Sequence record: MK524178.1
DNA: 64,000 nt
Strand: one strand, 5' to 3'
Origin: Escherichia phage PHB12
Numbering within the stretch: position 1 is the stretch's first letter; each line of letters begins with the position of its first letter. Under the pieces are notes generated by a model. It saw nothing but the letters and a program-made list of their open reading frames with translations, was not told the origin of the DNA and made no database searches. The translations under genes were made by a program, and so were the position numbers. This document shows, in pieces, positions 3,694 through 61,834 of this stretch.

Positions 3694-4554
3694 TTATACC
3701 GCCATTTTAGCTTTGATAGTTGGATGAGATTCGTAATTTTTAAGAACGAAATCAGAATGTGTCATCGTTCCAGTAACCCAGTCCATTTGGATTTTTGTAG
3801 GCCAATTCTCAAAATTACTAGGCCAATTAATTTCAAGAGAACATAACTCTTTAGGTTCACGACGAAGAACTTCTTTGCATTGCTCTACATGATTGCTGTA
3901 GATATGCGTATTGCCGCCTGAGAACACTAAATCACCTGGGATAAGGTTACACATCTTCGCTACAATATGCGTCAAGGCAGCGTACGAGGCGATGTTGAAC
4001 GGCAGGCCCAAGAAAACATCTACACTGCGTTGATACCATTGTAAATCAAGATGTCCATTACGCACATTAAATTGATAGAACATATGACAAGGAGGAAGAG
4101 CCATTTGGTCAATTTCGGCAGGGTTCCATGCAGAAACTATTTGTCGACGATCATTAGGAAGAGCTTTAATACGGTCGATAGTTTTGACCAATTGGTCTAC
4201 ACCACCAAAATCACGCCATTGCTTACCATAAATAGGACCAAGTTCGCCGCTATGATATCCAAGGTCTTTTGCCTGATTTTCGTAGTTATCGTCCCAAATA
4301 GTTTTACCTTGAATAAGACTACCATGAGTACGAATACGCAAATCATTAACATTGGTAGAACCAGACATGAACCATAATAGCTCTGCAATACAAGCTTTCC
4401 ATGCTAATTTCTTAGTTGTTACTGCAGGAAATCCTTTAGTAAGGTCCCATCGCAATTTAGTTCCGAATAGAGCAATAGTGCCGGTACCTGTACGGTCGTC
4501 TGTTTCGTAGCCATTTTCTAAGATATCTTTAATCAAATCTTGATATTGTTTCAT
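3694..4554 (-). CDS. td: Thymidylate synthase (uninterrupted, no intron)
   Basis: 286 aa; MKQYQDLIKDILENGYETDDRTGTGTIALFG and catalytic PPCH motif; the same length as T4 TS as I recall it, in one continuous ORF. Confidence 0.95.
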   Translation of the reverse strand: MKQYQDLIKDILENGYETDDRTGTGTIALFGTKLRWDLTKGFPAVTTKKLAWKACIAELLWFMSGSTNVNDLRIRTHGSLIQGKTIWDDNYENQAKDLGYHSGELGPIYGKQWRDFGGVDQLVKTIDRIKALPNDRRQIVSAWNPAEIDQMALPPCHMFYQFNVRNGHLDLQWYQRSVDVFLGLPFNIASYAALTHIVAKMCNLIPGDLVFSGGNTHIYSNHVEQCKEVLRREPKELCSLEINWPSNFENWPTKIQMDWVTGTMTHSDFVLKNYESHPTIKAKMAV

Positions 4555-5775: not shown

Positions 5776-6111
5776 CTAATATAAAGGATCGGGAACATAT
5801 CCACTAGCTTTAATCATTTTAATTAACGTTAACATTCCTTTATTAACTGCTCGTGAGATTTCATCAAAAACTTCATCACTAAAAAGTTCTAACACACCCT
5901 TCTGAACTTTTAATTTACAACCAACAATTTCGTCATCGCCTATAGTAAATTCGTTTCCGCCAATTCCACCGAAAAACTTAATCACGCCAGTTAACTGTCT
6001 TCCACGAGAATATGGGTCGTGTGATAAAGTAATATGAGTCACCCCAGGTACAGTTTTAAATTGGCAGCGAATGTTTACTTGGGAAATTCCAGTTACATGA
6101 ATGACAGACAT
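5776..6111 (-). CDS. Hypothetical protein
   Basis: 111 aa ORF in tight minus-strand array. Confidence 0.45.
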   Translation of the reverse strand: MSVIHVTGISQVNIRCQFKTVPGVTHITLSHDPYSRGRQLTGVIKFFGGIGGNEFTIGDDEIVGCKLKVQKGVLELFSDEVFDEISRAVNKGMLTLIKMIKASGYVPDPLY

Positions 6112-6121
6112 AATATTTTCC

Positions 6122-6379
6122 TCAAACAGACTTTTTCACAATTTTCCAATCAGCTTTAAACTGTTCAACATCAGAATGGTAAATCCAGAATCCTGCGCTT
6201 TCTCCATCCTCATAAAGAGGGCATCTATCACATTCATCTTCCCATCCCATATCACGTAAAGCTTCTTCAGCTTGTTCAAGGAGTTCAGCGTCTTTACCAA
6301 CGATGTTGAAGTACCATTTACCTCTAACTTCAGAATCTTTGATGCTCTGGCGTTGCAATCTCATTTTATTCTCCTTCAC
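6122..6379 (-). CDS. Hypothetical protein
   Basis: 85 aa ORF; early promoter-like element immediately upstream (6397-6426). Confidence 0.45.
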   Translation of the reverse strand: MKENKMRLQRQSIKDSEVRGKWYFNIVGKDAELLEQAEEALRDMGWEDECDRCPLYEDGESAGFWIYHSDVEQFKADWKIVKKSV

Positions 6380-6396
6380 TTTTATTTGATAGGGCT

Positions 6397-6426
6397 ACTA
6401 TAACATAGCCCTATCTTGTTATAAAC
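6397..6426 (-). promoter_or_regulatory. Early promoter
   Basis: Minus-strand GTTTAT, 18 bp, TATAGT, embedded in a palindrome GATAGGGCTA...TAGCCCTATC. Confidence 0.5.
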
Positions 6427-6818
6427 TACTTTTTAAAAGTTTTTTGCAAAAGTTTGATGATTTCGTCGACGTTGGTTTCATCTACGATACAATGTATTTT
6501 TGTTACACCTAAAGCTATACCTTTGTTAGTAGGTTGAGACTTTACTAAATCTACCTCAGTAAAGTATTTGAACTCATCATAATAAATCTCAAAGTAAGTT
6601 TCAATTTCACCAGCGGCAGAACATACAGTACCGTCTTCCATAGTTACACTTACTACGTTTGGCGTATCGCTATCATAATCAGGTTCCATTCCGTTTACAA
6701 CAAAACTAGGCCCGTGGAGTTCAATCAATTTTAACATCTTAGCGTTATTGTGTGGTGCTTCTTGAACAAAGTCGTCTTTAAACAAAGGGTTAATGATATA
6801 AGATTTTCCGATTTCCAT
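6426..6818 (-). CDS. Hypothetical protein
   Basis: 130 aa ORF; early promoter-like element upstream (6848-6876). Confidence 0.45.
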   Translation of the reverse strand: MEIGKSYIINPLFKDDFVQEAPHNNAKMLKLIELHGPSFVVNGMEPDYDSDTPNVVSVTMEDGTVCSAAGEIETYFEIYYDEFKYFTEVDLVKSQPTNKGIALGVTKIHCIVDETNVDEIIKLLQKTFKK

Positions 6819-8602: not shown

Positions 8603-9278
8603 AGTTCCATCCAGGCCATTTTGAAGATTTAAGTCTATACGTAACTAGAGATGCAGAAATATTAAAAACATCCGAAACTTCTGTGCATGATGAGTATTTT
8701 ATACCATCAATAATTATAGGTTTTTGTTTTTTAATAGTTCTTTCTTTAGAATGCGGCTTTGAATTTGCTATTCTAAGAGCTTCTTTGGTTGAATCAGGCA
8801 TCGGCTTATTCGTTTTTCGCCCTTTTCGGACTTTACTCAAAGCTAATTTATGAGCTTCAGATAGTTTCTTACCCTTATTAGGGGATGGTATTTTTCTTTC
8901 TAATCTGGTTTTAGATACTTTAGCCTTAGTCTCTTCAGATCTAGGTTTACCTAATTTAGAAAGTGAAATAGCCCTTTTAGCTTCATCACTTTGTTTTTTA
9001 CCAGGGCCACCTTTACCACCGGGAACTAAGTTATAAGTATCAGTTCGCAAAACAAAATCTTCATTAACCAATTCTGCTTCTTTTTTATAGGCGTCCTTGT
9101 CATTATCATATTCATAAAGAATTTCGGTATAAAAATTTTTTAGTCCATATTTAGCTTTGGCCGCTAATATAGCGCGGCCTGATCCAATATACCAATCTTT
9201 CTCTTTATGTTTTTTGTGTACGCCTATATAAATTTTACCATTTATTTTATTGGTAGTTTTATACACAACGTATTTCAT
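8595..9278 (-). CDS. Free-standing GIY-YIG homing endonuclease (Seg-like)
   Basis: 227 aa; GIY-YIG module YVVYKTTNKINGKIYIGVH...YIGSG, Lys-rich NUMOD-like linker, C-terminal DNA-binding-like region; ATGA overlap with gene 33 stop; 8-bp overlap with gene 59. Confidence 0.8.
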   Translation of the reverse strand: MKYVVYKTTNKINGKIYIGVHKKHKEKDWYIGSGRAILAAKAKYGLKNFYTEILYEYDNDKDAYKKEAELVNEDFVLRTDTYNLVPGGKGGPGKKQSDEAKRAISLSKLGKPRSEETKAKVSKTRLERKIPSPNKGKKLSEAHKLALSKVRKGRKTNKPMPDSTKEALRIANSKPHSKERTIKKQKPIIIDGIKYSSCTEVSDVFNISASLVTYRLKSSKWPGWNYD

Positions 9279-31908: not shown

Positions 31909-33009
31909 TTACGCTGTGAAGATTTTATCCCACATCGCAACAACTGCATCTCGGTTATACTTCTTCCATACTGCTTCAGCACGTTTAACTCGAGCTTCGT
32001 ATGTGTCAGTGAATTCTAATACAGCTTTTGTGTAAAGCGCAACTACTTCTTTCTTAGGAGTAGAGGAATCAATTTCTACACGCACAGTATCTGGGTCGTA
32101 TTCAAATGTCGCATGAGGATAATCCTTAAAAACTAACTGGATTACAGGGACACCTTTAGAGATGGCTTCAATAGAACTATTCTCTACCGTACCTGTGTTA
32201 GGACACGTATTAATAAGTGCTTTAGCTGTTTTAAGACGTTCCATGATTTCACTGTGTGGAGCATCAATAATAACAGGATATTTAGCTGGTGGTGCCCATT
32301 TGCTTGGACAGTATCCTACACCATTTTCGCCTAGTGCTTTAATCGCTTCAAGAGCAACATCAGTACGACGCATTTTAGTGTCATAACGTTGTGCACTAAT
32401 AATCAGATCAGTCGCCGGAAGAACTTCAGGTTTCTCATTCAAACAAATAACCGGATAATCTTCGGCTTCAAACAACGGATTTGCTCGCCAATAATCATAA
32501 TCAATTTTGTCAGTCAGACCTGAAGTCATATAACAATATTTGCGTTCAAATTCACGGAAGGCTTTAGTAGGAGCATAACTCTTACCACCATTCTTATGAA
32601 TTTGAATAGTCTGGTCCCAAATTTGAACAATGCCACGAGATACAGGTTCAAATGGTGTTGCCATAAAATTCTTATGAACTTTAGAGAGACCTGCGTCTTT
32701 AATTGCCTGAACGGTTAGTTTAGTCGGTTCCATAGTAACAACAAAATCGTATTCATGGATGCCGGCTAGTTCAACAATCTTACGAGCCATAGTATAACTC
32801 ATACCTAGACTGAATTTAGTCAGATGACCAACAGGATGGTGTGTAACTTTCCAGTCACCAAACGTGTCATTATCAAAACCGATATAATCAATATCAGCAC
32901 CAATAGAAACTAAATATTTCAACACATTTAAATGTACTGCTTCAAGGCCACCTTGTACACGGTCAGGATTAAATGGGACTGCACGAGATGGGATAAACAT
33001 AACTTTCAT
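31909..33009 (-). CDS. GT-B fold glycosyltransferase (candidate DNA hmC pentosyl/arabinosyl-transferase)
   Basis: 366 aa; C-terminal ...TGTVENSSIEAISKGVPVIQ fits the GT-B E-x7-E/GxPVI donor-binding signature; occupies the slot where T4 has gene 60/mobA. Confidence 0.7.
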   Translation of the reverse strand: MKVMFIPSRAVPFNPDRVQGGLEAVHLNVLKYLVSIGADIDYIGFDNDTFGDWKVTHHPVGHLTKFSLGMSYTMARKIVELAGIHEYDFVVTMEPTKLTVQAIKDAGLSKVHKNFMATPFEPVSRGIVQIWDQTIQIHKNGGKSYAPTKAFREFERKYCYMTSGLTDKIDYDYWRANPLFEAEDYPVICLNEKPEVLPATDLIISAQRYDTKMRRTDVALEAIKALGENGVGYCPSKWAPPAKYPVIIDAPHSEIMERLKTAKALINTCPNTGTVENSSIEAISKGVPVIQLVFKDYPHATFEYDPDTVRVEIDSSTPKKEVVALYTKAVLEFTDTYEARVKRAEAVWKKYNRDAVVAMWDKIFTA

Positions 33010-44142: not shown

Positions 44143-44664
44143 TCAGTAACCATTATCCTGGCGTTCAAAGTTGTGTTGGTTTTTCAAGTAGTAAAGTTTA
44201 AAGATTTCTTCAGCGGAAAGACCCAGACCTTGGAACATATTCAGAACGAAATGCAGAATATCAATCATCTCGAATTTAATTTCAAGCTGGTCTTCAGGAG
44301 ACAGTTCATCGATACGACGATTTCGATATTCAGCATGTTGAGCTTTCCAAGGCTTCCATACAGAGCTAGCGGCTTTTTCACCATTGCTCATACCACCAAG
44401 TGAAGTCAGCAGTTCACGGAATTCATCATCAATATAATCTTTTTGATTACGCAGCCAATCAACAACATCGCCAGCAGTGGCCAATTCATCAGGATGTTTG
44501 TTATGTTCAGGCTTGTCATTTGCCAGACGAACCTGTAAAGATTTCTGCATATCAAGCATTACCTGCAGAGGGTCTTTATCTTCGTGAATCAGAGCATTAA
44601 AATAAGCTTCTTCTGCTTTATCAACACCAGAAATAAGTTGTGAACATTCGTTAAAGTGTGCCAT
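44143..44664 (-). CDS. 56: dCTP pyrophosphatase gp56 (MazG-like)
   Basis: Start at ATG 44664 (MAHFNECSQLISG...) with SD AAAGGAAAA; T4 gp56-like; function matches hmC DNA metabolism. Confidence 0.9.
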   Translation of the reverse strand: MAHFNECSQLISGVDKAEEAYFNALIHEDKDPLQVMLDMQKSLQVRLANDKPEHNKHPDELATAGDVVDWLRNQKDYIDDEFRELLTSLGGMSNGEKAASSVWKPWKAQHAEYRNRRIDELSPEDQLEIKFEMIDILHFVLNMFQGLGLSAEEIFKLYYLKNQHNFERQDNGY

Positions 44665-50927: not shown

Positions 50928-51269
50928 TTAAAAGAATTTAAATTTTTTCTTGGTCCGTTCATTAAAAGCTTGTTGTACTTGCATTGTAACACATTTTTCA
51001 ACATGTGGTGCAAGTTCTGCTTTTCTGTCCTGGTCAAGAACTGCAAAGTCCATTACGATTTTACCATCAACCCAGTCTAGTTTTGTAATATAGACTATAT
51101 GATGAGAACCATCTTCAAGTGTAATCAGAATCTCTTGAATGACATTTTCCATTGCTGAACGGATAATTTTAAGAGATTCATTAAACACTCGTTCTTTGCG
51201 AATGTCTTCCCCTTCCGAAGAAGGGGATTCATCAACGATTTCTAGATTTAAATCATCGAGATTATTCAT
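50928..51269 (-). CDS. 40: gp40 (head vertex assembly chaperone position)
   Basis: About 113 aa between uvsX and 41 as in T4; start set at internal ATG to limit overlap with uvsX. Confidence 0.55.
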   Translation of the reverse strand: MNNLDDLNLEIVDESPSSEGEDIRKERVFNESLKIIRSAMENVIQEILITLEDGSHHIVYITKLDWVDGKIVMDFAVLDQDRKAELAPHVEKCVTMQVQQAFNERTKKKFKFF

Positions 51270-52434
51270 CGAAATCTTCCATTTCGTCAAGGTCGTTTTC
51301 TATATCTGCTGCAGACGGAGCATCAGAAGTTTTAACTGGAACTTTAGTTGTTGCTTTGCAATTAATAAGGTCGTTAACAGCGTCATCAACTTCTTTAATA
51401 GAAGAGATAGCACCTAGTTTATATTTAGTTTCAATTGCATCTCGGAAAGGTTTGTGTTTAAACAAAGGTCCCCAGAATTCTACACAATCAGTAGCTTTAG
51501 CACGCCATGATTTCTCTTCACGAATCATTTCGCCTGTTTCTTCGTCAAGGAATTCTCGAGCATACCACCCGGCTTTAGGCTTAACTACAAAACCAATTTC
51601 AGTTGCCATTTCTAACAAGCCACTGAATGGGTCAATACCACCATCAAAATTAACCGTGATCGGGAAAGTAGATTTTTCTTTAACGGTTCGAGATTTTTCT
51701 GCTTTCAACGTGAAGTCATAACCGGTCAATTCTGTGCCTTCTTTAACCTGACGTTTAGAGATAAAGAATACAGTGTTAGCAGAGTAAAGAATACCTGTAC
51801 CACCACCCATAATCTCTTTAGGATATAGACCGCCGATTTCCATTGCTGTATGGTTGATTGCAACACATGGAATATCTTTAATAGTCAGATAAGGAGTCAC
51901 AATGCGGAACAGAGATTTAAGTGCCTTAGCACGAGACATATCACCTACGACTTTCTCGTTCAATGCATCTTCGGTTTCTTTCTTAGATGCAGTATTACCA
52001 ATCGAGTCAATAAAGATAATAACTTTATCACCACGTTCAATCGCGTCAAGCTGATTAGTCATATCAACTTTAAGTTGTTCGACAGATTGAATCGGAGTAT
52101 GAACTACACGGTCTAAATCAACACCCATTGAACGAAAATAAGATTCTGAAGCACCAAATTCTGAATCATAGAACAAACAAATTGCATCTTTATATTTCTT
52201 CATATATGCTGCAACCATGGTCAGTCCAAACAACGTTTTAAAGTGTTTAGAAGGAGCAGCAAAAATAGTTAAGCCTGATTGCAACCCAGCATTCAGTGCA
52301 CCACCTAATGCAATATTCAACATCGGAATACGAGTAGGGACTTCATCGCGATTATTAAACAACTTAGACTTAGTCAAGTCTGCAGTCATTTTAGAAGTAG
52401 AAGCTTTAATCAGACGAGATTTTAAATCAGACAT
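51262..52434 (-). CDS. uvsX: UvsX recombinase (RecA-like)
   Basis: 390 aa; MSDLKSRLIKASTSKMTADLTKSKLFNNRDEVPTRIPMLNIALGGALNAGL matches T4 UvsX. Confidence 0.95.
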   Translation of the reverse strand: MSDLKSRLIKASTSKMTADLTKSKLFNNRDEVPTRIPMLNIALGGALNAGLQSGLTIFAAPSKHFKTLFGLTMVAAYMKKYKDAICLFYDSEFGASESYFRSMGVDLDRVVHTPIQSVEQLKVDMTNQLDAIERGDKVIIFIDSIGNTASKKETEDALNEKVVGDMSRAKALKSLFRIVTPYLTIKDIPCVAINHTAMEIGGLYPKEIMGGGTGILYSANTVFFISKRQVKEGTELTGYDFTLKAEKSRTVKEKSTFPITVNFDGGIDPFSGLLEMATEIGFVVKPKAGWYAREFLDEETGEMIREEKSWRAKATDCVEFWGPLFKHKPFRDAIETKYKLGAISSIKEVDDAVNDLINCKATTKVPVKTSDAPSAADIENDLDEMEDFDE

Positions 52435-52533: not shown

Positions 52534-53082
52534 TTAACGAGCCCATTTGATAATTTCTGTAATCAAATTATTACGTTCGCTTGCATTAAATCCTATAACT
52601 TTGTTAGCACCATCATGATTAAGTAATTGATACGTTTGGATTTTGTTATGAATTGCAAACTCTTCAAAATATGAAATGACTGTATTAAAACCAAATGAAG
52701 ACAAAGTAATAAGGTCGTCTTCAAAACTTTCAGTCATTTCGTTACGTGTTAAAATAATTGTGAACACATCATGGTTTTGGCAAAGACGAACATAATCCTG
52801 TTCATAAACGTCAAGAACCGAGTCCACATCTTGTCGAATACGTCCATAAACCCAGTTACTAATATATCCACGGTCTAACAGATAAATCTTAGTAGGGTCT
52901 AAATAATTCAACATCGTTTCGAAACAGCCAACTTCATTTCGAGACTTAACATCGAAACGTCCATCAACTGTTCGTTTAGGGAAATCAATCTTTACATATC
53001 TTTCACTAATTTCCATTATGTCATTAATGAAAGTTGTTTTACCAGCATTATCCGGGCCATCTACTAAAATAATTTTAGCCAT
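52534..53082 (-). CDS. Thymidylate-kinase-like P-loop nucleotide kinase
   Basis: 182 aa; Walker A ILVDGPDNAGKTT and DR(Y)-like LLDRGYISNWVYG as in dTMP/dNMP kinases. Confidence 0.6.
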   Translation of the reverse strand: MAKIILVDGPDNAGKTTFINDIMEISERYVKIDFPKRTVDGRFDVKSRNEVGCFETMLNYLDPTKIYLLDRGYISNWVYGRIRQDVDSVLDVYEQDYVRLCQNHDVFTIILTRNEMTESFEDDLITLSSFGFNTVISYFEEFAIHNKIQTYQLLNHDGANKVIGFNASERNNLITEIIKWAR

Positions 53083-53083
53083 T

Positions 53084-53983
53084 TTATTCCTCGATTATGA
53101 CATCTTCGTATTTAGGTATATTATACGGTGAAGAAATTAAAGCATTAAAGTAGATGAACTCACCAAGACCTGGATGGAATACTTCTTCAGGATTTTCGAA
53201 ATATTGAATCTTCGGCCGTCCTTTAAGAATTTGATAGTACTCAGTTTTAGTTGGTTTAAAAATTCGAATCAGTGCTTCTTCAGGATACTTATTTCTGTCG
53301 AAGCTATTATTTGGATCGGTTATATAAAGCGGTTGACCTAATTGAATTGCACATTCAACCACTTGTTCAAAACGATAACACGGGTCACTAATTCGAAATG
53401 GATGAAAAATACCATCTAGATGAATAGGAGCCAAATCACCTACAAGACGCTGCATGATGGAAGGACGTATAACTTTCTGCGTTACGATAATCTTATTACC
53501 ATCTGCACCTGCGTTAACCAGCACTTCTTTTTGACGTTCATTCAACACAGTAGTTTGAAGTGAACGATTAACAGACAACATGTCGGTTTTTAAGAATTCG
53601 TCAATATAAAAACGTGGTTTATTAGAGTCTGCAGTAATATTGAAATTGAATTCTACGTCAAAAGTGCCGTCATATCCAGTGATATCTGTGATTAGAAAAT
53701 CACAATCATAATAATCAATTAATGAATCAACCACAAATTCATTTTCAGACCAGAAATATTTACGAGTGTTATATGCGTTATCTTTATACCATAATGGAAC
53801 AAACTTAAATTCTGGGAAAAGACGTTCACATTCTTTAATATCAGATGCATTACGTGGATATGTAATTACATCACCCGGATTAGCACGGTGCAAATGAAGT
53901 TGGAAGTTGCCATCCTTAAGGATAGCATACTGTCCAGTTTCATAAGACCGCATACTCAAGATAGGTACGCGGAAAATAGCCAT
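53084..53983 (-). CDS. Hypothetical protein in the T4 beta-gt slot
   Basis: 299 aa; no motif assigned; sits between uvsX and gene 42 where T4 encodes beta-glucosyltransferase. Confidence 0.5.
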   Translation of the reverse strand: MAIFRVPILSMRSYETGQYAILKDGNFQLHLHRANPGDVITYPRNASDIKECERLFPEFKFVPLWYKDNAYNTRKYFWSENEFVVDSLIDYYDCDFLITDITGYDGTFDVEFNFNITADSNKPRFYIDEFLKTDMLSVNRSLQTTVLNERQKEVLVNAGADGNKIIVTQKVIRPSIMQRLVGDLAPIHLDGIFHPFRISDPCYRFEQVVECAIQLGQPLYITDPNNSFDRNKYPEEALIRIFKPTKTEYYQILKGRPKIQYFENPEEVFHPGLGEFIYFNALISSPYNIPKYEDVIIEE

Positions 53984-54699
53984 TAGTCAAGGAATCCTTT
54001 AACATAATCAAAATCACGTTCAAACACATGGGCACTTACCATGGTATGAGTATAATCACCAACTTCTACACCACATTCGTTAGCGATATAATGAAGTAAT
54101 TTTCCTTGGAGATAAAAATCCAACTGCATAACAACAGCACAGTTCTGAGAACGCATATGACAGTGGGTATAAAGCTTACCATCACGAATATAATAAGTCA
54201 CTGAGTCAGTACATGGATATTCAAGTGTTTCATCCGAATCAAGCAAAGCCTGATCTGAACTTTCAAGAATTTGAAACACAACTCTTCGTGAATTAGGTTT
54301 CTCTTTAAGTTCTTTTAGAAGAGTTGGTAACTGGGCCGCAATGCGAGGACCATAGAAAGTGTTGAAGTTCGCAGGCAAAGCATCTGATTTTGGTTTAGAA
54401 ATAAATTTAGCGACGTTAGGATATGCCTTAAATGCTTCTTCTGCATCAGTACCACCAGAAATCATAAATTTCCAGAAATCTTCAGCATATTCATAAGAGA
54501 TGCGATTAATACGTGGGTCGGTCATTTTGAATGATGAAGGGGTATCAACAACTACTGTCATAGACCCAATTTCATTACAACGTCCAATACGAGAGTCAGT
54601 AACGAACTGTGGATTTTCTAAAATTTCACGATTGACAGCTTTAAATGCGGATTGAAAATCTGCGGCTTTAATATATTTCATTGTGTTATGTTTTCCCAT
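53983..54699 (-). CDS. 42: dCMP hydroxymethylase homolog (thymidylate-synthase family), divergent
   Basis: 238 aa; catalytic YPCTDSV, PNSRRVVFQ, and HMRSQNCAVVMQLDFY with Asp at the position aligning to T4 D179 (cytosine specificity); I estimate about 30-35% identity to T4 gp42 by eye. Confidence 0.8.
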   Translation of the reverse strand: MGKHNTMKYIKAADFQSAFKAVNREILENPQFVTDSRIGRCNEIGSMTVVVDTPSSFKMTDPRINRISYEYAEDFWKFMISGGTDAEEAFKAYPNVAKFISKPKSDALPANFNTFYGPRIAAQLPTLLKELKEKPNSRRVVFQILESSDQALLDSDETLEYPCTDSVTYYIRDGKLYTHCHMRSQNCAVVMQLDFYLQGKLLHYIANECGVEVGDYTHTMVSAHVFERDFDYVKGFLD

Positions 54700-54978
54700 G
54701 TTTACCTCAATACAGTTATTATATACTCAATTCATAAAAGCTTATTTGAATTTCTTAGCGATGTTGATATAACGTAAAGCTTCAGCATCGATACTTCCAA
54801 GAACACTATGAAGAAATGCATCAGCGTAGTATTCTAGTTGAACAGGTTTCTTTAATCACTTTAGCCGCTTTAGTTTCAAACAGGCCCATAAGGGCCTTTT
54901 TAAGAATTTGTTCGTTGCTGTTAATTTTCATAGTCAAAATCTCTTCATTAAGTTGGTGGTTAAAAGTTTTTCTAGAAA

Positions 54979-56139
54979 TCATTCCGGGTACCTCAAAGCG
55001 TCATCAGAGTTAGTTATATCAATAATAGATATAGAGTTTTCTGCTAACCCATTTTTAGATAACTGACGTTTATAATATCTTTCACAATATGTACACGTCG
55101 TCCCGCAGATTTCATTAGCACAATCGAAATCTGGATGTCTGAACCACCTTTTTTCTAAAAAGCCATCTAACAAAGAGGTTTCAATATTTACTGTATGTGA
55201 AAACTCGGTTTCGTTTTCAAGAGTGAAAATAGTCTCTAAAGGCTTCCACAATTCCAACAAATTACCTTCAAATTTTTCAGAAGCATAAGCTTCAAGAACT
55301 TTCAAAATGTAGTCTGTGCTACCTGTACGTCCTGAAACTTTGAATTGAGTGATACCAATATCATTATAAAGTTTCAAATCTTGAGGACGAACAAAACGAG
55401 TTCTCAACCAGTTAAATGGGTCTGTATCACGAGCTTTAATACAGTGTTGCATTGGATATCCATTTAAGGATTTGGCATCATCTACTGTAACGTCGGTGCT
55501 ATGGAAAATATAGCAAGAGTCACGATAGCTACAATGTGTTGTATACCCTTTACCAGCATTAGAACAGAACTCATTTACAAGAACTTCAAATATTATATTG
55601 TTCTTATTACAAAACTCTGCTGCGCGTTTCAGGAAAGAAACTGAACGGTTCTTATGAATTCCACAGCAGACCTTTTTGATATTATATTGGTCATGCAAAT
55701 ATTTGATTTGAGTTACAGCATCAACATGTAGAATTGTTGAAACTTCAATCTCAATGTCTTTATTGACTTCACGAACAATTTCCATAACAACAGGGTTAGC
55801 GATAGTAATACGCCATACGCCTATTGACCAAAGATACTGAACATAATCCTGAATAGCTTTCTTCTTCCACTCAACTAGTTCTCTTTTTGAACCAGGATTT
55901 ATCGTGTTGAGTGTATAGTTAAAGCAAATACCTAATTCGTTACAACGTTTAACATAATCTTCTAACATCTTTTTGTCAACGTCAGGAAGCCTAAAATCAG
56001 GTCTGGCTGCTACAAAAGCCATTTCTCTTGTAGAGCCGTATACTTCGTTTATCAAGCTATTAGGATAAGTTTTATTGAGCTCTACGATTTTATCAAGAAG
56101 AGCTAAATCAAAATTCGTTCCGATTTTAAAGGTATTCAT
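54979..56139 (-). CDS. Peptidase-U32-family-like protein with Cys clusters
   Basis: 386 aa; FEVLVNEFCSNAGKGYTTHCSY resembles the U32 signature (E-[IV]-F-V-x-G-A-L-C...G-x-C); C-terminal CANEICGTTCTYC; assignment from motif recollection only. Confidence 0.45.
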   Translation of the reverse strand: MNTFKIGTNFDLALLDKIVELNKTYPNSLINEVYGSTREMAFVAARPDFRLPDVDKKMLEDYVKRCNELGICFNYTLNTINPGSKRELVEWKKKAIQDYVQYLWSIGVWRITIANPVVMEIVREVNKDIEIEVSTILHVDAVTQIKYLHDQYNIKKVCCGIHKNRSVSFLKRAAEFCNKNNIIFEVLVNEFCSNAGKGYTTHCSYRDSCYIFHSTDVTVDDAKSLNGYPMQHCIKARDTDPFNWLRTRFVRPQDLKLYNDIGITQFKVSGRTGSTDYILKVLEAYASEKFEGNLLELWKPLETIFTLENETEFSHTVNIETSLLDGFLEKRWFRHPDFDCANEICGTTCTYCERYYKRQLSKNGLAENSISIIDITNSDDALRYPE

Positions 56140-56193
56140 TTTTGCATCTCGCGTTAATTGTTGCGATGGTTTTTGCAGGTCTTACTTAAATTA

Positions 56194-56580
56194 TTATAGA
56201 TTCGGTTTATATGATTTAAATGTTTCGAATTCGCCTTTATTCATAAGAGCTTTGAATTCGTCAGGACGCATAGCTTTGTCGTCGATAATCCAATCATATA
56301 CTGGTTTATGTGTTAGCAAATTATGGTACTTCAATCCAATGTTTGCCAAGTTCTGAATCAGACTTGGGAGAATGTCAATTGCTATACGACCAGGACCGAC
56401 TGACTTCATACCGCGAGCAGTGTAAAGAGTTATTGTATGCCCTGCATCATACAGGGCATTAATGGCAGACACCATTTCGACGTCTGGTTTGAAGTTCACG
56501 TAATCACGATTGTTATTCCACTCTGTTATACAATCATCGACATCAAAACAAAGATTAAGCATGTTTTCTACACGGTGCAT
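56194..56580 (-). CDS. Small HAD-like phosphatase (candidate sugar-phosphate phosphatase)
   Basis: About 128 aa from ATG 56580 (TAATG coupling); HAD-like motif I FDVDDCIT, motif II ITLYTARG, motif IV WIIDDK. Confidence 0.5.
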   Translation of the reverse strand: MHRVENMLNLCFDVDDCITEWNNNRDYVNFKPDVEMVSAINALYDAGHTITLYTARGMKSVGPGRIAIDILPSLIQNLANIGLKYHNLLTHKPVYDWIIDDKAMRPDEFKALMNKGEFETFKSYKPNL

Positions 56581-58265
56581 TAGATTCGTTCCCATTGATG
56601 AGTGATATCGCCACCGATTGGACGATAGGAAACACCAGTTTCTTTATCAGTTAGTACCCATTTACCAGGATTTTTTGTAATCAGAGTAGCCGTTACAGGT
56701 TCTGCTACGTCATAACTAATAGAGCCGTCTTGAAGTACACGGCCCATGTTACGTAATTGCTTAGTCAGAAGTTCCATACCTTTATAATATGCGGCTACCG
56801 CTTTAAGTGGATTATTCTTGAAATAACCACCTAATGCAATCCAGATAATTGCTACAGCCAAATGATGATATTCATTAAACGAACTCATCTTTCCATATTT
56901 GTAAACTAATGGATTGATGTTAATAGTCACATTACAAGTTGTTTCATCAATAGTAAACTGTCCCCAGGTCGGATTAGCGTTGAATTCATCATAACCTGAA
57001 ACAGCATAAAGCACTTTAGCTTCATCGTACAATTTTGGCCCATAAATCTTGGTTTCGCCAAAATATCCACGAGGGTCGATAAACTTAACTTCGCCGTTAT
57101 CAGTAATCATAGTATTACTGAAGTTCGGGTCACCATGAATAACAGAGTACTGTCCCTGAGAACGATTATGATAACGAATAAGGTGTTCTAAAGCTTGTTT
57201 CAGCATTGGCTTCAGACGTCCAATCTTAGTGTAGTTCACATGTGTGATTTTACCAAATGAATCAATCAATGGTTGAATGCTTTCACAACGATCAATAACT
57301 TTCGTATAGAATTCTTTAGTGAAATCACGACGAACAGTTTCAGGACTTACAAAATAAGTGTCTGTGCTGAATTTCAGTGCATCTAAAATTGCATCAACAA
57401 TTTGTGGACGAGCAAGACTCGATTTGGATTTAATATATTCAAATGCCGGCTTACCTTTAATGCGTTCCATTTCAAAGTTATTTTCATTAACAGAAACTAA
57501 CTGAGGAACTGAATCTGATTTCACTTTAAGATACCATGAAATCTCATCTTTCTGAAGAGCTCGGCCCTGTTCGGTTAATGCGAATTTAGTTACAGTTTCT
57601 TCACCAATTTCAACTGCATTAAAACTACGATTAAGTTCACGAACTTCATGAGCTTTTTCAAGTTTAGGCATATCACCTAAATCAATTAGATTCATAAGCT
57701 CTGATTTATTGAATGCGCTGCCGTAAAGGAATTCTACGAAATCACGTCCTTTGCAGTATTCATGAATTTCCTCATCAGTAGAACCCATATAGAATTCCCA
57801 GTCTTTGAACTGATAAATTCCTACAACATTACCACCTGTTGAACCTACGTTAGTGATATTTTCACCGTCGAAATTATATCGACATTCGTCACCCTTAACA
57901 TAGATTGCGTTAACATTCCAAGACCATGAGCCAAAATCAGGAATAATATCACACCAGTTAACAATTACATTATGGCCGTCTAAATCTTTGTGTAATTTAG
58001 CAAGAGCATAAGCAGAACCATACGCTTCATCAACTGTACGAATAGTCACATTGAACCCTTCTTGCTCACAATAAGCTCGAACAGTTTCAGCAAATTTTGA
58101 ATGAACTACTACAATAATTTCATCTGCGCCAAGGTCAGAATAAATTGTATACAAATTGCTCAGAATAGTGTCTTGTTTATAGTTAACAAGCACCTTAGGA
58201 ATATGATGCGTTATTGGATACAAACGAGTTGCCAGTCCAGCACCAAGAATAACAGCTTTTTTCAT
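56580..58265 (-). CDS. Bifunctional sugar-1-phosphate nucleotidyltransferase / APH-ChoK-like sugar kinase
   Basis: 561 aa; N-terminal KAVILGAGLATRLYPIT (NTP-transferase G-x-G-T-R), C-terminal VIHGDPNFSNTMI...KFIDPRG (Brenner H-G-D-x4-N and D-x-E kinase motifs). Confidence 0.75.
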   Translation of the reverse strand: MKKAVILGAGLATRLYPITHHIPKVLVNYKQDTILSNLYTIYSDLGADEIIVVVHSKFAETVRAYCEQEGFNVTIRTVDEAYGSAYALAKLHKDLDGHNVIVNWCDIIPDFGSWSWNVNAIYVKGDECRYNFDGENITNVGSTGGNVVGIYQFKDWEFYMGSTDEEIHEYCKGRDFVEFLYGSAFNKSELMNLIDLGDMPKLEKAHEVRELNRSFNAVEIGEETVTKFALTEQGRALQKDEISWYLKVKSDSVPQLVSVNENNFEMERIKGKPAFEYIKSKSSLARPQIVDAILDALKFSTDTYFVSPETVRRDFTKEFYTKVIDRCESIQPLIDSFGKITHVNYTKIGRLKPMLKQALEHLIRYHNRSQGQYSVIHGDPNFSNTMITDNGEVKFIDPRGYFGETKIYGPKLYDEAKVLYAVSGYDEFNANPTWGQFTIDETTCNVTININPLVYKYGKMSSFNEYHHLAVAIIWIALGGYFKNNPLKAVAAYYKGMELLTKQLRNMGRVLQDGSISYDVAEPVTATLITKNPGKWVLTDKETGVSYRPIGGDITHQWERI

Positions 58266-58306
58266 GTTGTGGTCCTCATTGGTAAGTAGGAGTATTGTAC
58301 ACTATT

Positions 58307-58450
58307 CTAGTTAAAGCATTCATACTTTGCTTGTAGTCCAATCATAATCCATCCGATTATAAGAGTCGGAATCATTACTGGAGCCGTTAAGCTCCAGTAG
58401 ATAGTCATGACAAGCATCAATAGTAAAAGTCCTATTGTTATTGCTTTCAT
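58307..58450 (-). CDS. Putative small membrane protein (47 aa)
   Basis: Manual translation MKAITIGLLLLMLVMTIYWSLTAPVMIPTLIIGWIMIGLQ...; ATGA coupled to SIS gene stop. Confidence 0.3.
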   Translation of the reverse strand: MKAITIGLLLLMLVMTIYWSLTAPVMIPTLIIGWIMIGLQAKYECFN

Positions 58451-59082
58451 TGTTCGCCTCGTAACATGGCACCTAGTGCACCGCCAGGGTGGAACTTAAG
58501 GAAGTCATTAGAGGTAAATCCACGTTCAGACGAAAGGTTGATAGCAAACGTATCGATAAGCGCTAACAACAATGTAGTGGACATGGTCGGAGCCAGAGAA
58601 TTCTCATCGACCTCTACTGCGATGCCTGTACAGAACGTATAATCAAAAAGAGCTTCGTATTCTTGTGGAATGTCTGGGTTACAATGCAACAGAATCTGTT
58701 TGACGTTCGGACGAATCATTTTAAGATGCTTAGCCACGCCTATCATTTCTTCAGTTTTACCGGAACGACTAATATGAATCAACACATCATTAGGCGCAAT
58801 GAATCCTGCATCACCGTGAGAATAATGCCCAGTGTTCAAGTACATACTCGGGATACCGAGTGAAGCAAATGTCTCAGAAGCTTTAGTTGCAATATTAGCA
58901 TTCTTACCAACACCTGTAATAATTACTCGGCTTTCATAATTACTAAGTCCAGGGCGTCGAAGAGTTTCTAGAATAGCATTATAACGAGCAGGGTTTTGAC
59001 TAATTACTTTGGCCATAGCGGCCAAAGAAGAAGCTTGTTTTATGATTGCGTCAATAGCGATAGTAATAGGAGTAGTTTTCAT
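58447..59082 (-). CDS. SIS-domain sugar-phosphate isomerase (KdsD/GutQ-like; candidate arabinose-5-phosphate isomerase)
   Basis: 211 aa; ITGVGKNANIATKASETFASLGIPS and C-terminal HPGGALG are SIS-domain hallmarks. Confidence 0.75.
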   Translation of the reverse strand: MKTTPITIAIDAIIKQASSLAAMAKVISQNPARYNAILETLRRPGLSNYESRVIITGVGKNANIATKASETFASLGIPSMYLNTGHYSHGDAGFIAPNDVLIHISRSGKTEEMIGVAKHLKMIRPNVKQILLHCNPDIPQEYEALFDYTFCTGIAVEVDENSLAPTMSTTLLLALIDTFAINLSSERGFTSNDFLKFHPGGALGAMLRGEQ

Positions 59083-59122: not shown

Positions 59123-61834
59123 TCAAAAATCGAACATATCGAACAGAGATGCTTTCTTCTCGTAATCGAGTTTCGCTGCTGATGTGAATCCTTCAAGTGG
59201 TTTAATAAATGTCTTCTCAAGGAGAACAGTGTAGTCCATCCAATGAAGTACGTCGTCTTTAATTAAATCTGTGATTTCAGTGCCAGAAGGCCATGCGATA
59301 CATTTATCACCGAATGGGTTTCCTTCACGTAAAGGCAGAACATATACTTTTTCACCTTCTACAACTTGTGGTGCATCGATATTACCTTTGATAGCCCGGT
59401 TATACGTCAGAATTCCACGAATATGGAATGGGCATTTGGGACCAGGGAATCCACCTACGTCATATTTAGCAATGTTATTCGCAGAAGATACCGACGCGAT
59501 GCTAATATAATTCAATTGACGGAATTCTTTTTCAAACTCTTTAAAATATTCTTGTAATGATTCTTCACCTTCTTGAAGCATACGACGAATACATTCTTTA
59601 AGAGCTTTCTGTACTGCTTTAGGAGTCGAAGATTTCTGAGTCTCTAGACCCATGATTTTGAGTTTAGGCTCAGCGTAACGAGTACCTTCCATATCCCACA
59701 CGTTTAATGCATAACGTTTCTTACCAGTCCAGAATCCACCAATACCTTTAGAACCTAATGGAGGCCCAGCGATAGCTTCTCGGTCCATGAACATTAAGTG
59801 TTGTTTATTGTTCATGTATTCACACATTTCACGGAAACCTCTATCAATAGCTGGTTCCATACGTTCACGTGCAAACTTATCTAAGAAGTCTACCCAATGG
59901 TTGGTATCACGGAATTTAGATTCACCAACCTTATCGATAATTTTATCAGCAGATACGTAAATAGAGTCTGTATCACCATAAAGAACGAAAGCTTCACCTT
60001 CTGTACCACAAACTTCATTCAGATATTCATTAACTTTACGTTCAATCCACTGTAAAGCCATTTGACCAAATGTTGTGATTGCAGTAGCATTACGCAAATC
60101 ATAATAACGGAACCAAACGTTTCCAAGTGCACCATAAAGTGAGTTGATAAGCAATTTACGGTTAATTTGAGCAGTCATACCTGCAACTTCAGTACGTTGA
60201 GCTCTAAACAACATTTCATTAAGAGATTTAGCAGACAACTTTTTAATCTTTTCTTTAATCTCATCACTGAAGTCGAAACGATAATCAACATCTAATGGTT
60301 CGTCAACAGAAAGATTAGGATTATGCAATGCCTCTTTAATTATTTCACCATTACGTTGAGCTGCAAGCATGTAACCTTTATGTTCTTTACGTTGATTAAA
60401 GACCTTAGTGATTTCAGTTGGAACTACACCATCACGGTCTTTATAATACATCATGCCGTTAGGAGAGCAACTGTACACATCTGAAGGACGTTCAGCAACA
60501 GCGTTAATATAATCATGCAATGGAGCTACTTTAAACGTTCCTGCTATTGTTTCTGGGCTAATATTCACTTGGCGAATAATACTTGGATACAGAGATGTAA
60601 GGTCGAAACTCATTACATATTTGTATCGATTCGGAATAGGTTCCTTAACAAAAGCGCCGGGATAAGGTTGAACCGGGTGAGAACGACCTTGTGGAATCAC
60701 CTTGTTCTGCTCTTTAAGGCTATTAAAAATAATAGCATCCCATGTTTTAATTGGACTAAACACAGATTGAATCTGTATCTTAGCATAATAACCCATGTCC
60801 AAACTCAAGTTGATGAACTGACGCTTAGCATCAATTTGCAATACACGGTACACGTCGATAATGTTATAAGAAATATATCGTTGGTGATTGCTTTCACGAA
60901 GCTTAGAAATAGGGCCGTCATATTTCAGTTTACCAACGTTCAATTCAAATTCTGAAATGTAATCCAGAGAATATGATGGTTGATTGGTAAAAGAGAATTT
61001 TTTGTAAAGGTCAATGTAATCAAGAACAGAGATACCGAACAATGTAATGATTTCACGAGAACCATACATGTTTTCGATAACTTTAACACGAGTTTTACGA
61101 TGTGGTGATAAACGTTTCGCAGTAGATTCGCCAAAAATATTCTTGATTCGGTTATACACATACGGAATATCAAATGACTCAACGTTCCATCCAGTCAAAA
61201 TGACAGGAGTTTTCTGTTGCCAGAAGTTGAGATATTCCATCAACAATTCTTTTTCGTTATCGAACGGCATATAAATGATTTTATCGATAATTTCAGATGG
61301 AACTTCATCACCACCTTGTTCTTGAAGCTTAGCAGCGATTTCAATAGACCATTCTTCTACATTACCATATGGAGAATTCAATAGATCAAATACATAGAAC
61401 CTGTCGTCAATTGAGTCATAATGGGTGATAGCATCAATCGGATGTTTTGCTTGTGACGGCTCAGGGAACCCATCCGGAGATGTTACTTCGATGTCGAAGT
61501 TAGCCACACGAATTTTTGTATGGTCATATTTGATTTCATAGTTATAAGTGTCAGACAAATACGCCAATTTGAAATCGTCCATGCCAAGTGCTTCAAGTCC
61601 GATATCTTCCATGCGTTTAATCCATTGGGAGGCATCACGCATATTGGCGAACAACTTACGAGTACACGGCTTACCGTAGATATCGAAATATTTCGTAGCC
61701 TGACTTTCTGGGCAATGAGCAAACAGTGATGGTTTATATTCTACTTCACGAGTACGTTCACGGCCATTAGAATCGATGTAACGTTCAAAAATTGAATCAC
61801 CAATCTGTTCAACCGTTAAGTAAAATTCTTTCAT
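59123..61834 (-). CDS. 43: DNA polymerase gp43 (family B)
   Basis: 903 aa; exo motif FDIEV, pol motifs SLYPSI, YGDTDS; N-terminus matches my recollection of RB69 gp43 (903 aa). Confidence 0.97.
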   Translation of the reverse strand: MKEFYLTVEQIGDSIFERYIDSNGRERTREVEYKPSLFAHCPESQATKYFDIYGKPCTRKLFANMRDASQWIKRMEDIGLEALGMDDFKLAYLSDTYNYEIKYDHTKIRVANFDIEVTSPDGFPEPSQAKHPIDAITHYDSIDDRFYVFDLLNSPYGNVEEWSIEIAAKLQEQGGDEVPSEIIDKIIYMPFDNEKELLMEYLNFWQQKTPVILTGWNVESFDIPYVYNRIKNIFGESTAKRLSPHRKTRVKVIENMYGSREIITLFGISVLDYIDLYKKFSFTNQPSYSLDYISEFELNVGKLKYDGPISKLRESNHQRYISYNIIDVYRVLQIDAKRQFINLSLDMGYYAKIQIQSVFSPIKTWDAIIFNSLKEQNKVIPQGRSHPVQPYPGAFVKEPIPNRYKYVMSFDLTSLYPSIIRQVNISPETIAGTFKVAPLHDYINAVAERPSDVYSCSPNGMMYYKDRDGVVPTEITKVFNQRKEHKGYMLAAQRNGEIIKEALHNPNLSVDEPLDVDYRFDFSDEIKEKIKKLSAKSLNEMLFRAQRTEVAGMTAQINRKLLINSLYGALGNVWFRYYDLRNATAITTFGQMALQWIERKVNEYLNEVCGTEGEAFVLYGDTDSIYVSADKIIDKVGESKFRDTNHWVDFLDKFARERMEPAIDRGFREMCEYMNNKQHLMFMDREAIAGPPLGSKGIGGFWTGKKRYALNVWDMEGTRYAEPKLKIMGLETQKSSTPKAVQKALKECIRRMLQEGEESLQEYFKEFEKEFRQLNYISIASVSSANNIAKYDVGGFPGPKCPFHIRGILTYNRAIKGNIDAPQVVEGEKVYVLPLREGNPFGDKCIAWPSGTEITDLIKDDVLHWMDYTVLLEKTFIKPLEGFTSAAKLDYEKKASLFDMFDF

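Follow-up and report, generated by a model that had tools for sequence, protein, structure and literature searches.

Three genes between uvsX and the DNA polymerase gene of Escherichia phage PHB12 very probably form the nucleotide-proximal core of an arabinosyl-5-hydroxycytosine DNA hypermodification pathway

The pathway that leads to arabinosylated 5-hydroxycytosine in phage DNA is already known; it was published in 2025-2026 for RB69, HY126, Bas46/47, DLP3 and their relatives. The modified base of RB69 was described at first as arabinosyl-5-hydroxymethylcytosine (arabinosyl-hmC; PMC6024577) and was later corrected to arabinosyl-5-hydroxycytosine (PMC13326640, PMC13390438). The arabinose was placed directly on the C5 oxygen by nuclear magnetic resonance (NMR) and mass spectrometry (MS) (PMC13326640). 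RB69 gp48 and DLP3 gp80 carry flavin and make 5-hydroxydeoxycytidine (5-hydroxy-dC, 5hodC) in vivo, the oxygen coming from 18O2 (Lee et al. 2026, PMC13326640). An Asn at the position of ThyA Asp169 (D169N) is diagnostic of synthases of 5-hydroxydeoxycytidine monophosphate (5-hydroxy-dCMP, 5hodCMP): nine further D169N homologs all gave 5hodC (PMC13326640). A crystal structure of the HY126 enzyme with flavin is cited in the same paper (He et al. 2026). Arabinosyl transfer by RB69 gp46:47 is only proposed there, without reconstitution, and RB69 gp45 is given only as a 'nucleotide kinase' from fold matches, without discussion (PMC13326640). The window analysed here (64,000 nucleotides of Escherichia phage PHB12, sequence record MK524178.1) carries counterparts of these three genes at 52534-54699. 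In the pathway by which RB69/HY126-type phages hypermodify their DNA with arabinosyl-5-hydroxycytosine (ara-5hoC), they very probably constitute the nucleotide-proximal core. The three open reading frames (ORFs) are the following.

53983..54699, minus strand: predicted 5-hydroxy-dCMP synthase (238 aa), ThyA superfamily, RB69 gp48 ortholog (Pfam Thymidylat_synt, PDB identity, signature residues).
53084..53983, minus strand: predicted GT-B glycosyltransferase (299 aa; GT1), proposed first (base-proximal) DNA arabinosyltransferase, RB69 gp46:47 ortholog.
52534..53082, minus strand: thymidylate-kinase-like P-loop nucleotide kinase (182 aa), RB69 gp45 ortholog; putative substrate 5-hydroxy-dCMP or a derivative.

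An earlier note, made from the letters of this DNA, had placed these ORFs at 52534-54699 and had quoted the motifs GPDNAGKTT, DRGYISNWVYG and YPCTDSV; the position is confirmed and all three motifs were found. The stop codon of the 238-aa gene overlaps the start of the 299-aa gene (TAATG), and a single base separates the stop of the latter from the ATG of the 182-aa gene; because of this overlap and this gap, the three genes are probably co-translated. The gene uvsX is directly downstream (51262-52434; 68% identity to T4 UvsX) and the DNA polymerase gene (gene 43) is at 59123-61834. The interval between them is packed with close ORFs on the minus strand and holds an eight-gene cluster (52534 to 59082), which is more than had been described. 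At the same place T4 has uvsX, segA, beta-gt, 42. The order given for T4 in the earlier note (uvsX, beta-gt, 42) was broadly right; it left out only the homing endonuclease gene segA. The loss of beta-gt from its slot is borne out: no sequence homolog of T4 beta-gt was found in the window by tblastn, and BLASTP of the 299-aa protein against beta-gt gave an E value of 3.8.

The 238-aa protein matches Pfam PF00303 (Thymidylat_synt, 1.9e-15) and is the sole gp42-like sequence in the window. It is identical over its full length, at 236 of 238 positions, to the HY126 protein, including its structures in PDB (9iqc, 9ir2, 9iqu), and at 235 of 238 positions to RB69 ORF048c (gp48). In an alignment with T4 gp42 and Escherichia coli ThyA, its residues E160, C163, N186 and D194 correspond to ThyA L143, C146, D169 and N177, respectively; the ThyA sequence used in it agrees with PMC13326640 at all twelve residues listed there. 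The position of ThyA D169 is occupied by Asp in both T4 gp42 and E. coli ThyA and by Asn186 in the 238-aa protein. The catalytic Cys (C163) and the equivalent of the cytosine-selecting N177D (D194) are both present, as had been pointed out for what was then taken as a strongly diverged gene 42 homolog. The same E-C-N-D signature was found in 15 of the 15 T4-like loci examined that have a synthase homolog. Because of the D169N signature and of the near-identity to RB69 gp48 and to the HY126 enzyme, whose activity is published, the 238-aa protein is assigned from its sequence as a 5-hydroxy-dCMP synthase and not as a gp42-type hydroxymethylase.

Compared with the RB69 gp48/HY126 ThyA homolog, the 238-aa protein is 98.7-99.2% identical over the full length, with the same E/C/N/D signature and the same genomic position; two or three conservative substitutions are the only differences, so that it is effectively the same protein. 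A flavin-bound, O2-dependent conversion of deoxycytidine monophosphate (dCMP) to 5hodCMP is carried over from these orthologs and would be expected here. With T4 gp42 the protein has in common the superfamily, the fold, the catalytic Cys, the cytosine-selecting Asp, an acidic residue at the L143 position and the uvsX-gene 43 neighbourhood. It differs in having Asn at Asp169 and, according to the literature on its orthologs, in using flavin and O2 instead of methylene-tetrahydrofolate and in yielding a product with OH instead of CH2OH. Membership in the gp42-type hydroxymethylases was tried and failed: Asn186 stands in place of the folate-site Asp, and identity to T4 gp42 is 25% only (over 218 residues). 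Labels of the synthase vary across GenBank records: thymidylate synthase, dCMP hydroxymethylase, hypothetical.

The 299-aa protein models confidently as a GT-B fold (two Rossmann domains), a fold resolved by structure prediction only. Its top structural match, 6kih, is the one published for RB69 gp46:47. No sequence match was found in Pfam, NCBIfam or PDB (phmmer), Glycos_transf_1-type families included. In PHROGs it belongs to a function-unknown family, and it has at least 138 homologs, of which all that have a source name are labelled hypothetical or conserved hypothetical phage proteins. Identity to the RB69 products is 115/116 for ORF046c and 176/181 for ORF047c; the HY126/RB69 comparison gives 295/299. 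The RB69 counterpart, gp46:47 (predicted alpha-arabinosyltransferase 1, DLP3 gp79 family), is split in the RB69 GenBank record and is one intact ORF here. That record (AY303349) splits the 299-aa gene (ORF046c/ORF047c) and also a 561-aa gene (ORF052c/ORF053c); both are intact in the window, which supports the published view that the splits are sequencing errors (PMC13326640). The T4 alpha- and beta-glucosyltransferases have no detectable sequence similarity to the 299-aa protein, which is about 50-100 residues shorter. They use a 5-hydroxymethyl acceptor and UDP-glucose, whereas a 5-hydroxyl and UDP-arabinofuranose (UDP-Araf) would be used here, according to the literature. The earlier suggestion of a transferase thus agrees with the GT-B model and with the orthology to RB69 gp46:47. 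The protein is proposed, on its modelled fold, as the first DNA arabinosyltransferase, moving arabinose from UDP-Araf to 5-hydroxycytosine (5hoC). Correction is needed for the GenBank labels of both this protein (hypothetical) and the 238-aa protein (dCMP hydroxymethylase or thymidylate synthase).

The 182-aa protein has a thymidylate kinase (TMPK) fold by structure prediction, as its motifs had suggested in the earlier note, and the structures nearest to it are those of genuine TMPKs. The TMPKs of vaccinia (2v54) and S. tokodaii (2plr), for example, have the same fold; the P-loop GxDxxGKT, FP(K/x)R and DR-x-x-S are found in the 182-aa protein. TMPK motifs are defined as a P-loop GxD/ExxGKS/T, with Asp typical, together with DR(Y/H/F). 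Identity is 180/182 to the HY126 protein, 178/182 (98%) to RB69 gp45 and 8-19% to solved TMPKs. The motifs invariant in the kinase family (28 sequences) are G9-x-D11-N-x-G-K15-T16, F34-P-K36, R48-N-E-V, D70-R71 and S75-N76; G9-x-D11-N-A-G-K15-T16 and D70-R71-G-Y73 are also reported as invariant in 28 kinase homologs. A profile of the family matched PDB TMPKs marginally (E 0.0075), and a search with the single sequence gave marginal P-loop/FPxR matches. These PDB sequence matches are too weak to map base-contacting residues, and therefore no residue-level substrate prediction is made. Because of the marginal profile match and of its failure with curated models (see below), the 182-aa protein is regarded as a TMPK-fold kinase that does not belong to the canonical TMPK family. 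The deoxynucleoside monophosphate (dNMP) kinase T4 gp1 (RB69 gp159) belongs to a different family; the gene of the gp1 homolog is located in another part of the genome.

A kinase of the same family (31% identity) was observed on a 48-kb IMG/VR contig from an unrelated virus (L025, 7001-9589), 1.2 kb upstream of a D169-type thymidylate synthase (TS) homolog (K-C-D-D). The gene order is kinase, MazG-like (by eye), 282-aa protein, TS homolog, one ORF, then a dCMP-deaminase-like ORF (by eye). The cluster probably serves another kind of pyrimidine hypermodification and draws on the same kinase family; its layout fits the theme of a pyrimidine-modifying TS homolog paired with its own nucleoside monophosphate kinase.

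The three genes go together across phages. Of 50,697 phage records in the collection, 343 carry the kinase, 348 the 299-aa protein and about 340 a close homolog of the synthase. By genus, the counts of kinase/GT1/synthase are 176/176/176 for Escherichia, 57/57/64 for Acinetobacter and 15/15/15 for Shigella. The cluster order in 15 T4-like loci is isomerase, bifunctional enzyme, HAD, U32 (where present), synthase, GT1, kinase. GT1, synthase and kinase are adjacent in every examined T4-like locus carrying the cluster; in the JS98 variant the kinase is upstream of the synthase. Distant homologs of the kinase and of GT1 are adjacent again in unrelated viral contigs.

The following steps are proposed. 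The 238-aa enzyme would hydroxylate dCMP at C5 with flavin and O2 to give 5-hydroxy-dCMP (literature, 98-99% identical orthologs). This would be phosphorylated and then incorporated instead of dC, the phage dCTPase removing dCTP (literature, orthologs). Three further steps are predicted from fold, synteny and published predictions: the upstream isomerase, bifunctional kinase/uridylyltransferase and HAD phosphatase would supply UDP-Araf; the 299-aa GT-B enzyme would take arabinofuranose from UDP-Araf and attach it, as the first sugar, to the 5-hydroxyl; and a 366-aa glycosyltransferase encoded at 31.9-33.0 kb would attach the second arabinose. The 182-aa protein may phosphorylate 5hodCMP to 5-hydroxydeoxycytidine diphosphate (5hodCDP), a step suggested by its fold and by the genes associated with it, and it may share this function with the dNMP kinase of gp1 type.

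Several points weigh against this scheme. The 182-aa protein falls below curated TMPK thresholds (16.8 bits for TIGR00041, the cut-off being 83.25) and has no match to PF02223 (Thymidylate_kin) at E below 0.1. RB69 gp159, the T4 gp1 homolog, converts 5hodCMP to 5hodCDP (PMC13326640); an extra kinase is thus not obviously required and may have a different substrate. Morganella phage vB_MmoM_MP1 has a 52%-identical kinase (locus 5995-6525) between pol and uvsX, and no synthase, GT1 or arabinose genes were found nearby; the kinase gene can thus be retained when the other genes of the module are missing. For the transferase, single purified DLP3 glycosyltransferases gave no arabinosylation of 5hoC-DNA, and the authors cannot tell whether the first sugar joins the mononucleotide or DNA (PMC13326640). 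No enzymatic activity of the kinase or of GT1 was reported in the literature accessible to search. The remaining interest lies in the kinase substrate, in the acceptor of the first sugar (DNA or nucleotide) and in the function of the U32-family protein.

Among the other explanations, the one that survives best takes the 182-aa protein as an ordinary thymidine monophosphate (dTMP) or general dNMP kinase that raises the supply of thymidylate or deoxynucleoside triphosphates (dNTPs), its link to the modification genes being physical only. Bona fide TMPKs as nearest structural neighbours, the solitary kinase gene of MP1 and the handling of 5hodCMP by the gp1-type kinase all favour it. It is nevertheless unlikely: the co-occurrence with the synthase and GT1 is near one-to-one over about 340 genomes, with adjacency in all the cluster-bearing T4-like loci examined; remote kinase homologs stand beside GT1 homologs in unrelated viral contigs; the protein is strongly diverged from canonical TMPKs; and T4 needs no separate TMPK.

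Glycosylation before replication is judged quite improbable. GT1 would arabinosylate 5hodCMP, and the TMPK-like kinase would phosphorylate a bulky ara-5hodCMP that gp1 cannot handle. Such a route would fit the inactivity of single glycosyltransferases on 5hoC-DNA, the substrate level left open by the same authors (PMC13326640), the adjacency or translational coupling of the kinase and GT1 genes, and the apparent redundancy of the kinase for 5hodCMP itself. However, the polymerase would need to accept a glycosylated dNTP, and the characterised phage DNA glycosyltransferases, DLP3 gp76/77 included, all act on DNA (PMC13326640). It is very improbable that the 299-aa protein is not a transferase but some other enzyme whose fold resembles GT-B, such as a nucleotide-sugar 2-epimerase with the sugar donor as its substrate.

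The model of the earlier note (gp42-like synthesis of 5-hydroxymethyl-dCMP, a kinase acting on it, and the 299-aa protein as a glucosyl-type hmC transferase in place of beta-gt) can draw on the catalytic Cys and cytosine-selecting Asp common to the 238-aa protein and T4 gp42, on the many GenBank records with the label dCMP hydroxymethylase and on the first report of RB69 DNA as ara-hmC (PMC6024577), but it is scarcely credible given the loss of the Asp169 that T4 gp42 keeps, the 99% identity to enzymes that make 5-hydroxy-dC with oxygen from O2, the NMR/MS placement of arabinose on the C5 oxygen (PMC13326640) and the published liquid chromatography-MS of RB69 and NicPhage virion DNA, in which a mass series of 5-O-arabinosyl-dC was seen and nothing derived from hmC. 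The hydroxymethylase identity and 5-hydroxymethyl-dCMP as the modified nucleotide are thus replaced by a synthase with the D169N signature, 5-hydroxy-dCMP and arabinose as the sugar. The anatomy given in that note was right, and so, in kind, were two of its three functional guesses; its chemistry was wrong.

The scheme in which the three genes form the nucleotide-proximal core of ara-5hoC synthesis also draws on other genes of the window, which are listed below with the evidence in brackets. The roles of the arabinose-pathway genes (isomerase, AfhE and AfhF types, second glycosyltransferase) are taken from PMC13326640.

54821..54982, minus strand: small ORF between the synthase and U32 genes, at the position of RB69 ORF049c (49-aa coding sequence in F2, 94% identical).
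54979..56139, minus strand: predicted Peptidase_U32-family iron-sulfur (Fe-S) protein, RB69 gp50 ortholog (Pfam Peptidase_U32 6.3e-11; 383/386 identical to RB69 gp50).
56194..56595, minus strand: HAD-type phosphatase, ortholog of RB69 gp51 and HY126 AfhF (NCBIfam capsule biosynthesis phosphatase 4.3e-13; 128/128 vs HY126).
56580..58265, minus strand: predicted bifunctional sugar kinase and UDP-arabinose pyrophosphorylase, RB69 gp52:53/HY126 AfhE ortholog (545/561 vs HY126).
58447..59082, minus strand: arabinose-5-phosphate isomerase, RB69 gp55 ortholog (Pfam SIS; NCBIfam KpsF/GutQ 2e-32; 211/211 vs HY126).
31909..33009, minus strand: predicted second DNA arabinosyltransferase (366 aa), RB69 gp3 ortholog (phmmer E 2e-250 to PDB 9iqz/9ir0, 'phage HY126 glycosyltransferase').
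44146..44664, minus strand: dCTP pyrophosphatase, T4 gp56 homolog, expected to remove dCTP and supply dCMP (tblastn 100% to F2 gp088, 88% to JS98 gp56).

The bifunctional enzyme has an N-terminal Pfam NTP_transferase domain and a weak APH-like kinase region in its C-terminal part. The gene of the second arabinosyltransferase sits between the topoisomerase large subunit gene and rIIA. The HAD phosphatase converts Araf-1,5-bisphosphate to Araf-1-phosphate (PMC13326640, citing He et al. 2026). Its ORF is 133 aa long, with a 16-base overlap with the upstream gene; HY126, RB69 and F2 annotate 128 aa from an ATG at 56580, and this shorter form is probably the true one. In F2 and other GenBank records this phosphatase is labelled 'phosphoheptose isomerase'.

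The U32 gene is located 280 bp upstream of the 238-aa synthase gene. RB69 gp50 has been called 'sugar or heterocycle reductase' from fold matches (PMC13326640). The protein has 268 homologs. Ten of its Cys residues, those of a C-terminal Cx4Cx3Cx2C among them, are kept without exception in homologs as distant as 47% identity; it is assigned from sequence as an Fe-S-type protein. It was found in 221 phage records, versus about 345 for the other cluster genes (Escherichia: 136 versus 176). No Acinetobacter is among the genera listed for U32 records, and the clusters of the Acinetobacter phages L005 and L022-L024, of Pseudomonas phage PspYZU05 (L073) and of E. coli phage JS98 lack the gene. A rule according to which a facultative anaerobe host means that U32 is present was rejected, since JS98-type E. 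coli phages lack it; U32 is thus accessory.

The context of U32 outside Straboviridae was inspected in 30 loci with a 40-58% identical homolog, over 8-10 kb per side (at most 10 kb). A search with a TS-superfamily hidden Markov model, which recovered both positive controls, gave a TS homolog within 10 kb in only one of them (L049, of the canonical D169 type). The GT1 profile matches 17 of the 30 loci and the kinase profile about nine; a tight kinase-GT1-U32 operon occurs in seven. The operon of L069 is directly preceded by a weak sub-threshold match to a dUTPase_2-type NTPase and, two genes upstream, by a primase gene; a PolIII alpha subunit gene comes after it. In L032 and L055 a weak sub-threshold match to a TAGT-like glycosyltransferase follows the operon; in L032 it is also followed by a UDP-galactopyranose mutase, which indicates that the sugar differs there. 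Other U32 homologs adjoin dCMP deaminase, NT5C and dNK genes. In nine U32 loci the isomerase and bifunctional enzyme genes are present as well, so that a part in sugar chemistry is possible.

Genes of one protein family, whose L030 member matches Pfam DAHP_synth_1 (KdsA/DAHP-synthase-like), were observed near U32: directly beside it in L030 (9145-9891), L047 (9384-10130) and L064 (11113-11436), and one gene away in L060 (9-971). An enzyme of this kind might use arabinose-5-phosphate, as in Kdo-type sugar synthesis, or supply a shikimate/prephenate route.

The U32-family proteins RlhA and TrhP are needed for C5 hydroxylation of cytidine/uridine in RNA, and UbiU/V hydroxylate quinone precursors without O2. 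The phage U32 protein gave no sequence match to solved structures and no significant pairwise BLAST match to E. coli RlhA or UbiU; in a MAFFT alignment with UbiU, UbiV, RlhA and TrhP, one Cys only is convincingly aligned. The link to the U32 hydroxylases thus comes from Pfam membership and gene context, not from conserved Fe-S motif spacing. U32 is considered a candidate alternative hydroxylase because of the kinase-GT1-U32 operons with no nearby TS homolog and of its absence in Acinetobacter/Pseudomonas (aerobe) phages. A tentative reading, possible and not probable, takes kinase-GT1 as a transferable module whose partner must be a pyrimidine C5 hydroxylase; two unrelated enzymes, the flavin/O2-dependent ThyA homolog and U32, could fill this place, the latter being a second 5-hydroxy-dCMP synthase and the TMPK-like kinase a dedicated 5hodCMP kinase. 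In TS-less loci U32 may be a non-orthologous replacement of the ThyA-type hydroxylase. That its hydroxylation would be independent of O2 is speculation. No paper linking the phage U32 protein to base hydroxylation was found in the literature searched; the comparative-genomic pattern turns this role into a directly testable hypothesis. If it is true, a second, possibly O2-independent, route to a hypermodified DNA base exists, and thanks to U32 coliphages of the gut could fully modify their DNA when oxygen is lacking.

By sequence the window is from an RB69/HY126-type coliphage. Megablast of 52.4-58.3 kb gave full-length matches of 95-99% identity to about 150 phage genomes, every one that of an RB69-like coliphage (F2, JS09, ST0, SF and HX01 among them); DNA identity to Escherichia phage F2 is 98.4%. 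Seven cluster proteins are 97-100% identical to their HY126 and RB69 counterparts. The RefSeq record of F2 (NC_054913) gives Tequatrovirus in its taxonomy line, though the region is 98% identical to the ORF045c-055c region of RB69 (Mosigvirus). A recently acquired foreign island was considered and set aside: the GC content (0.33-0.37) equals that of the surroundings, and the cluster is syntenic across genera. In a promoter/terminator scan of 52.3-59.3 kb the counts equalled the shuffle expectation, which gives no ground for drawing operon boundaries.

A canonical thymidylate synthase, td, is also encoded (3697-4554, minus strand; 89% identity to the F2 protein); with the 238-aa synthase, the phage thus has two ThyA-superfamily enzymes. 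A GIY-YIG homing endonuclease gene (8700-9266, minus strand; 33% identity to T4 SegA) is located near the nrd genes, not beside uvsX.

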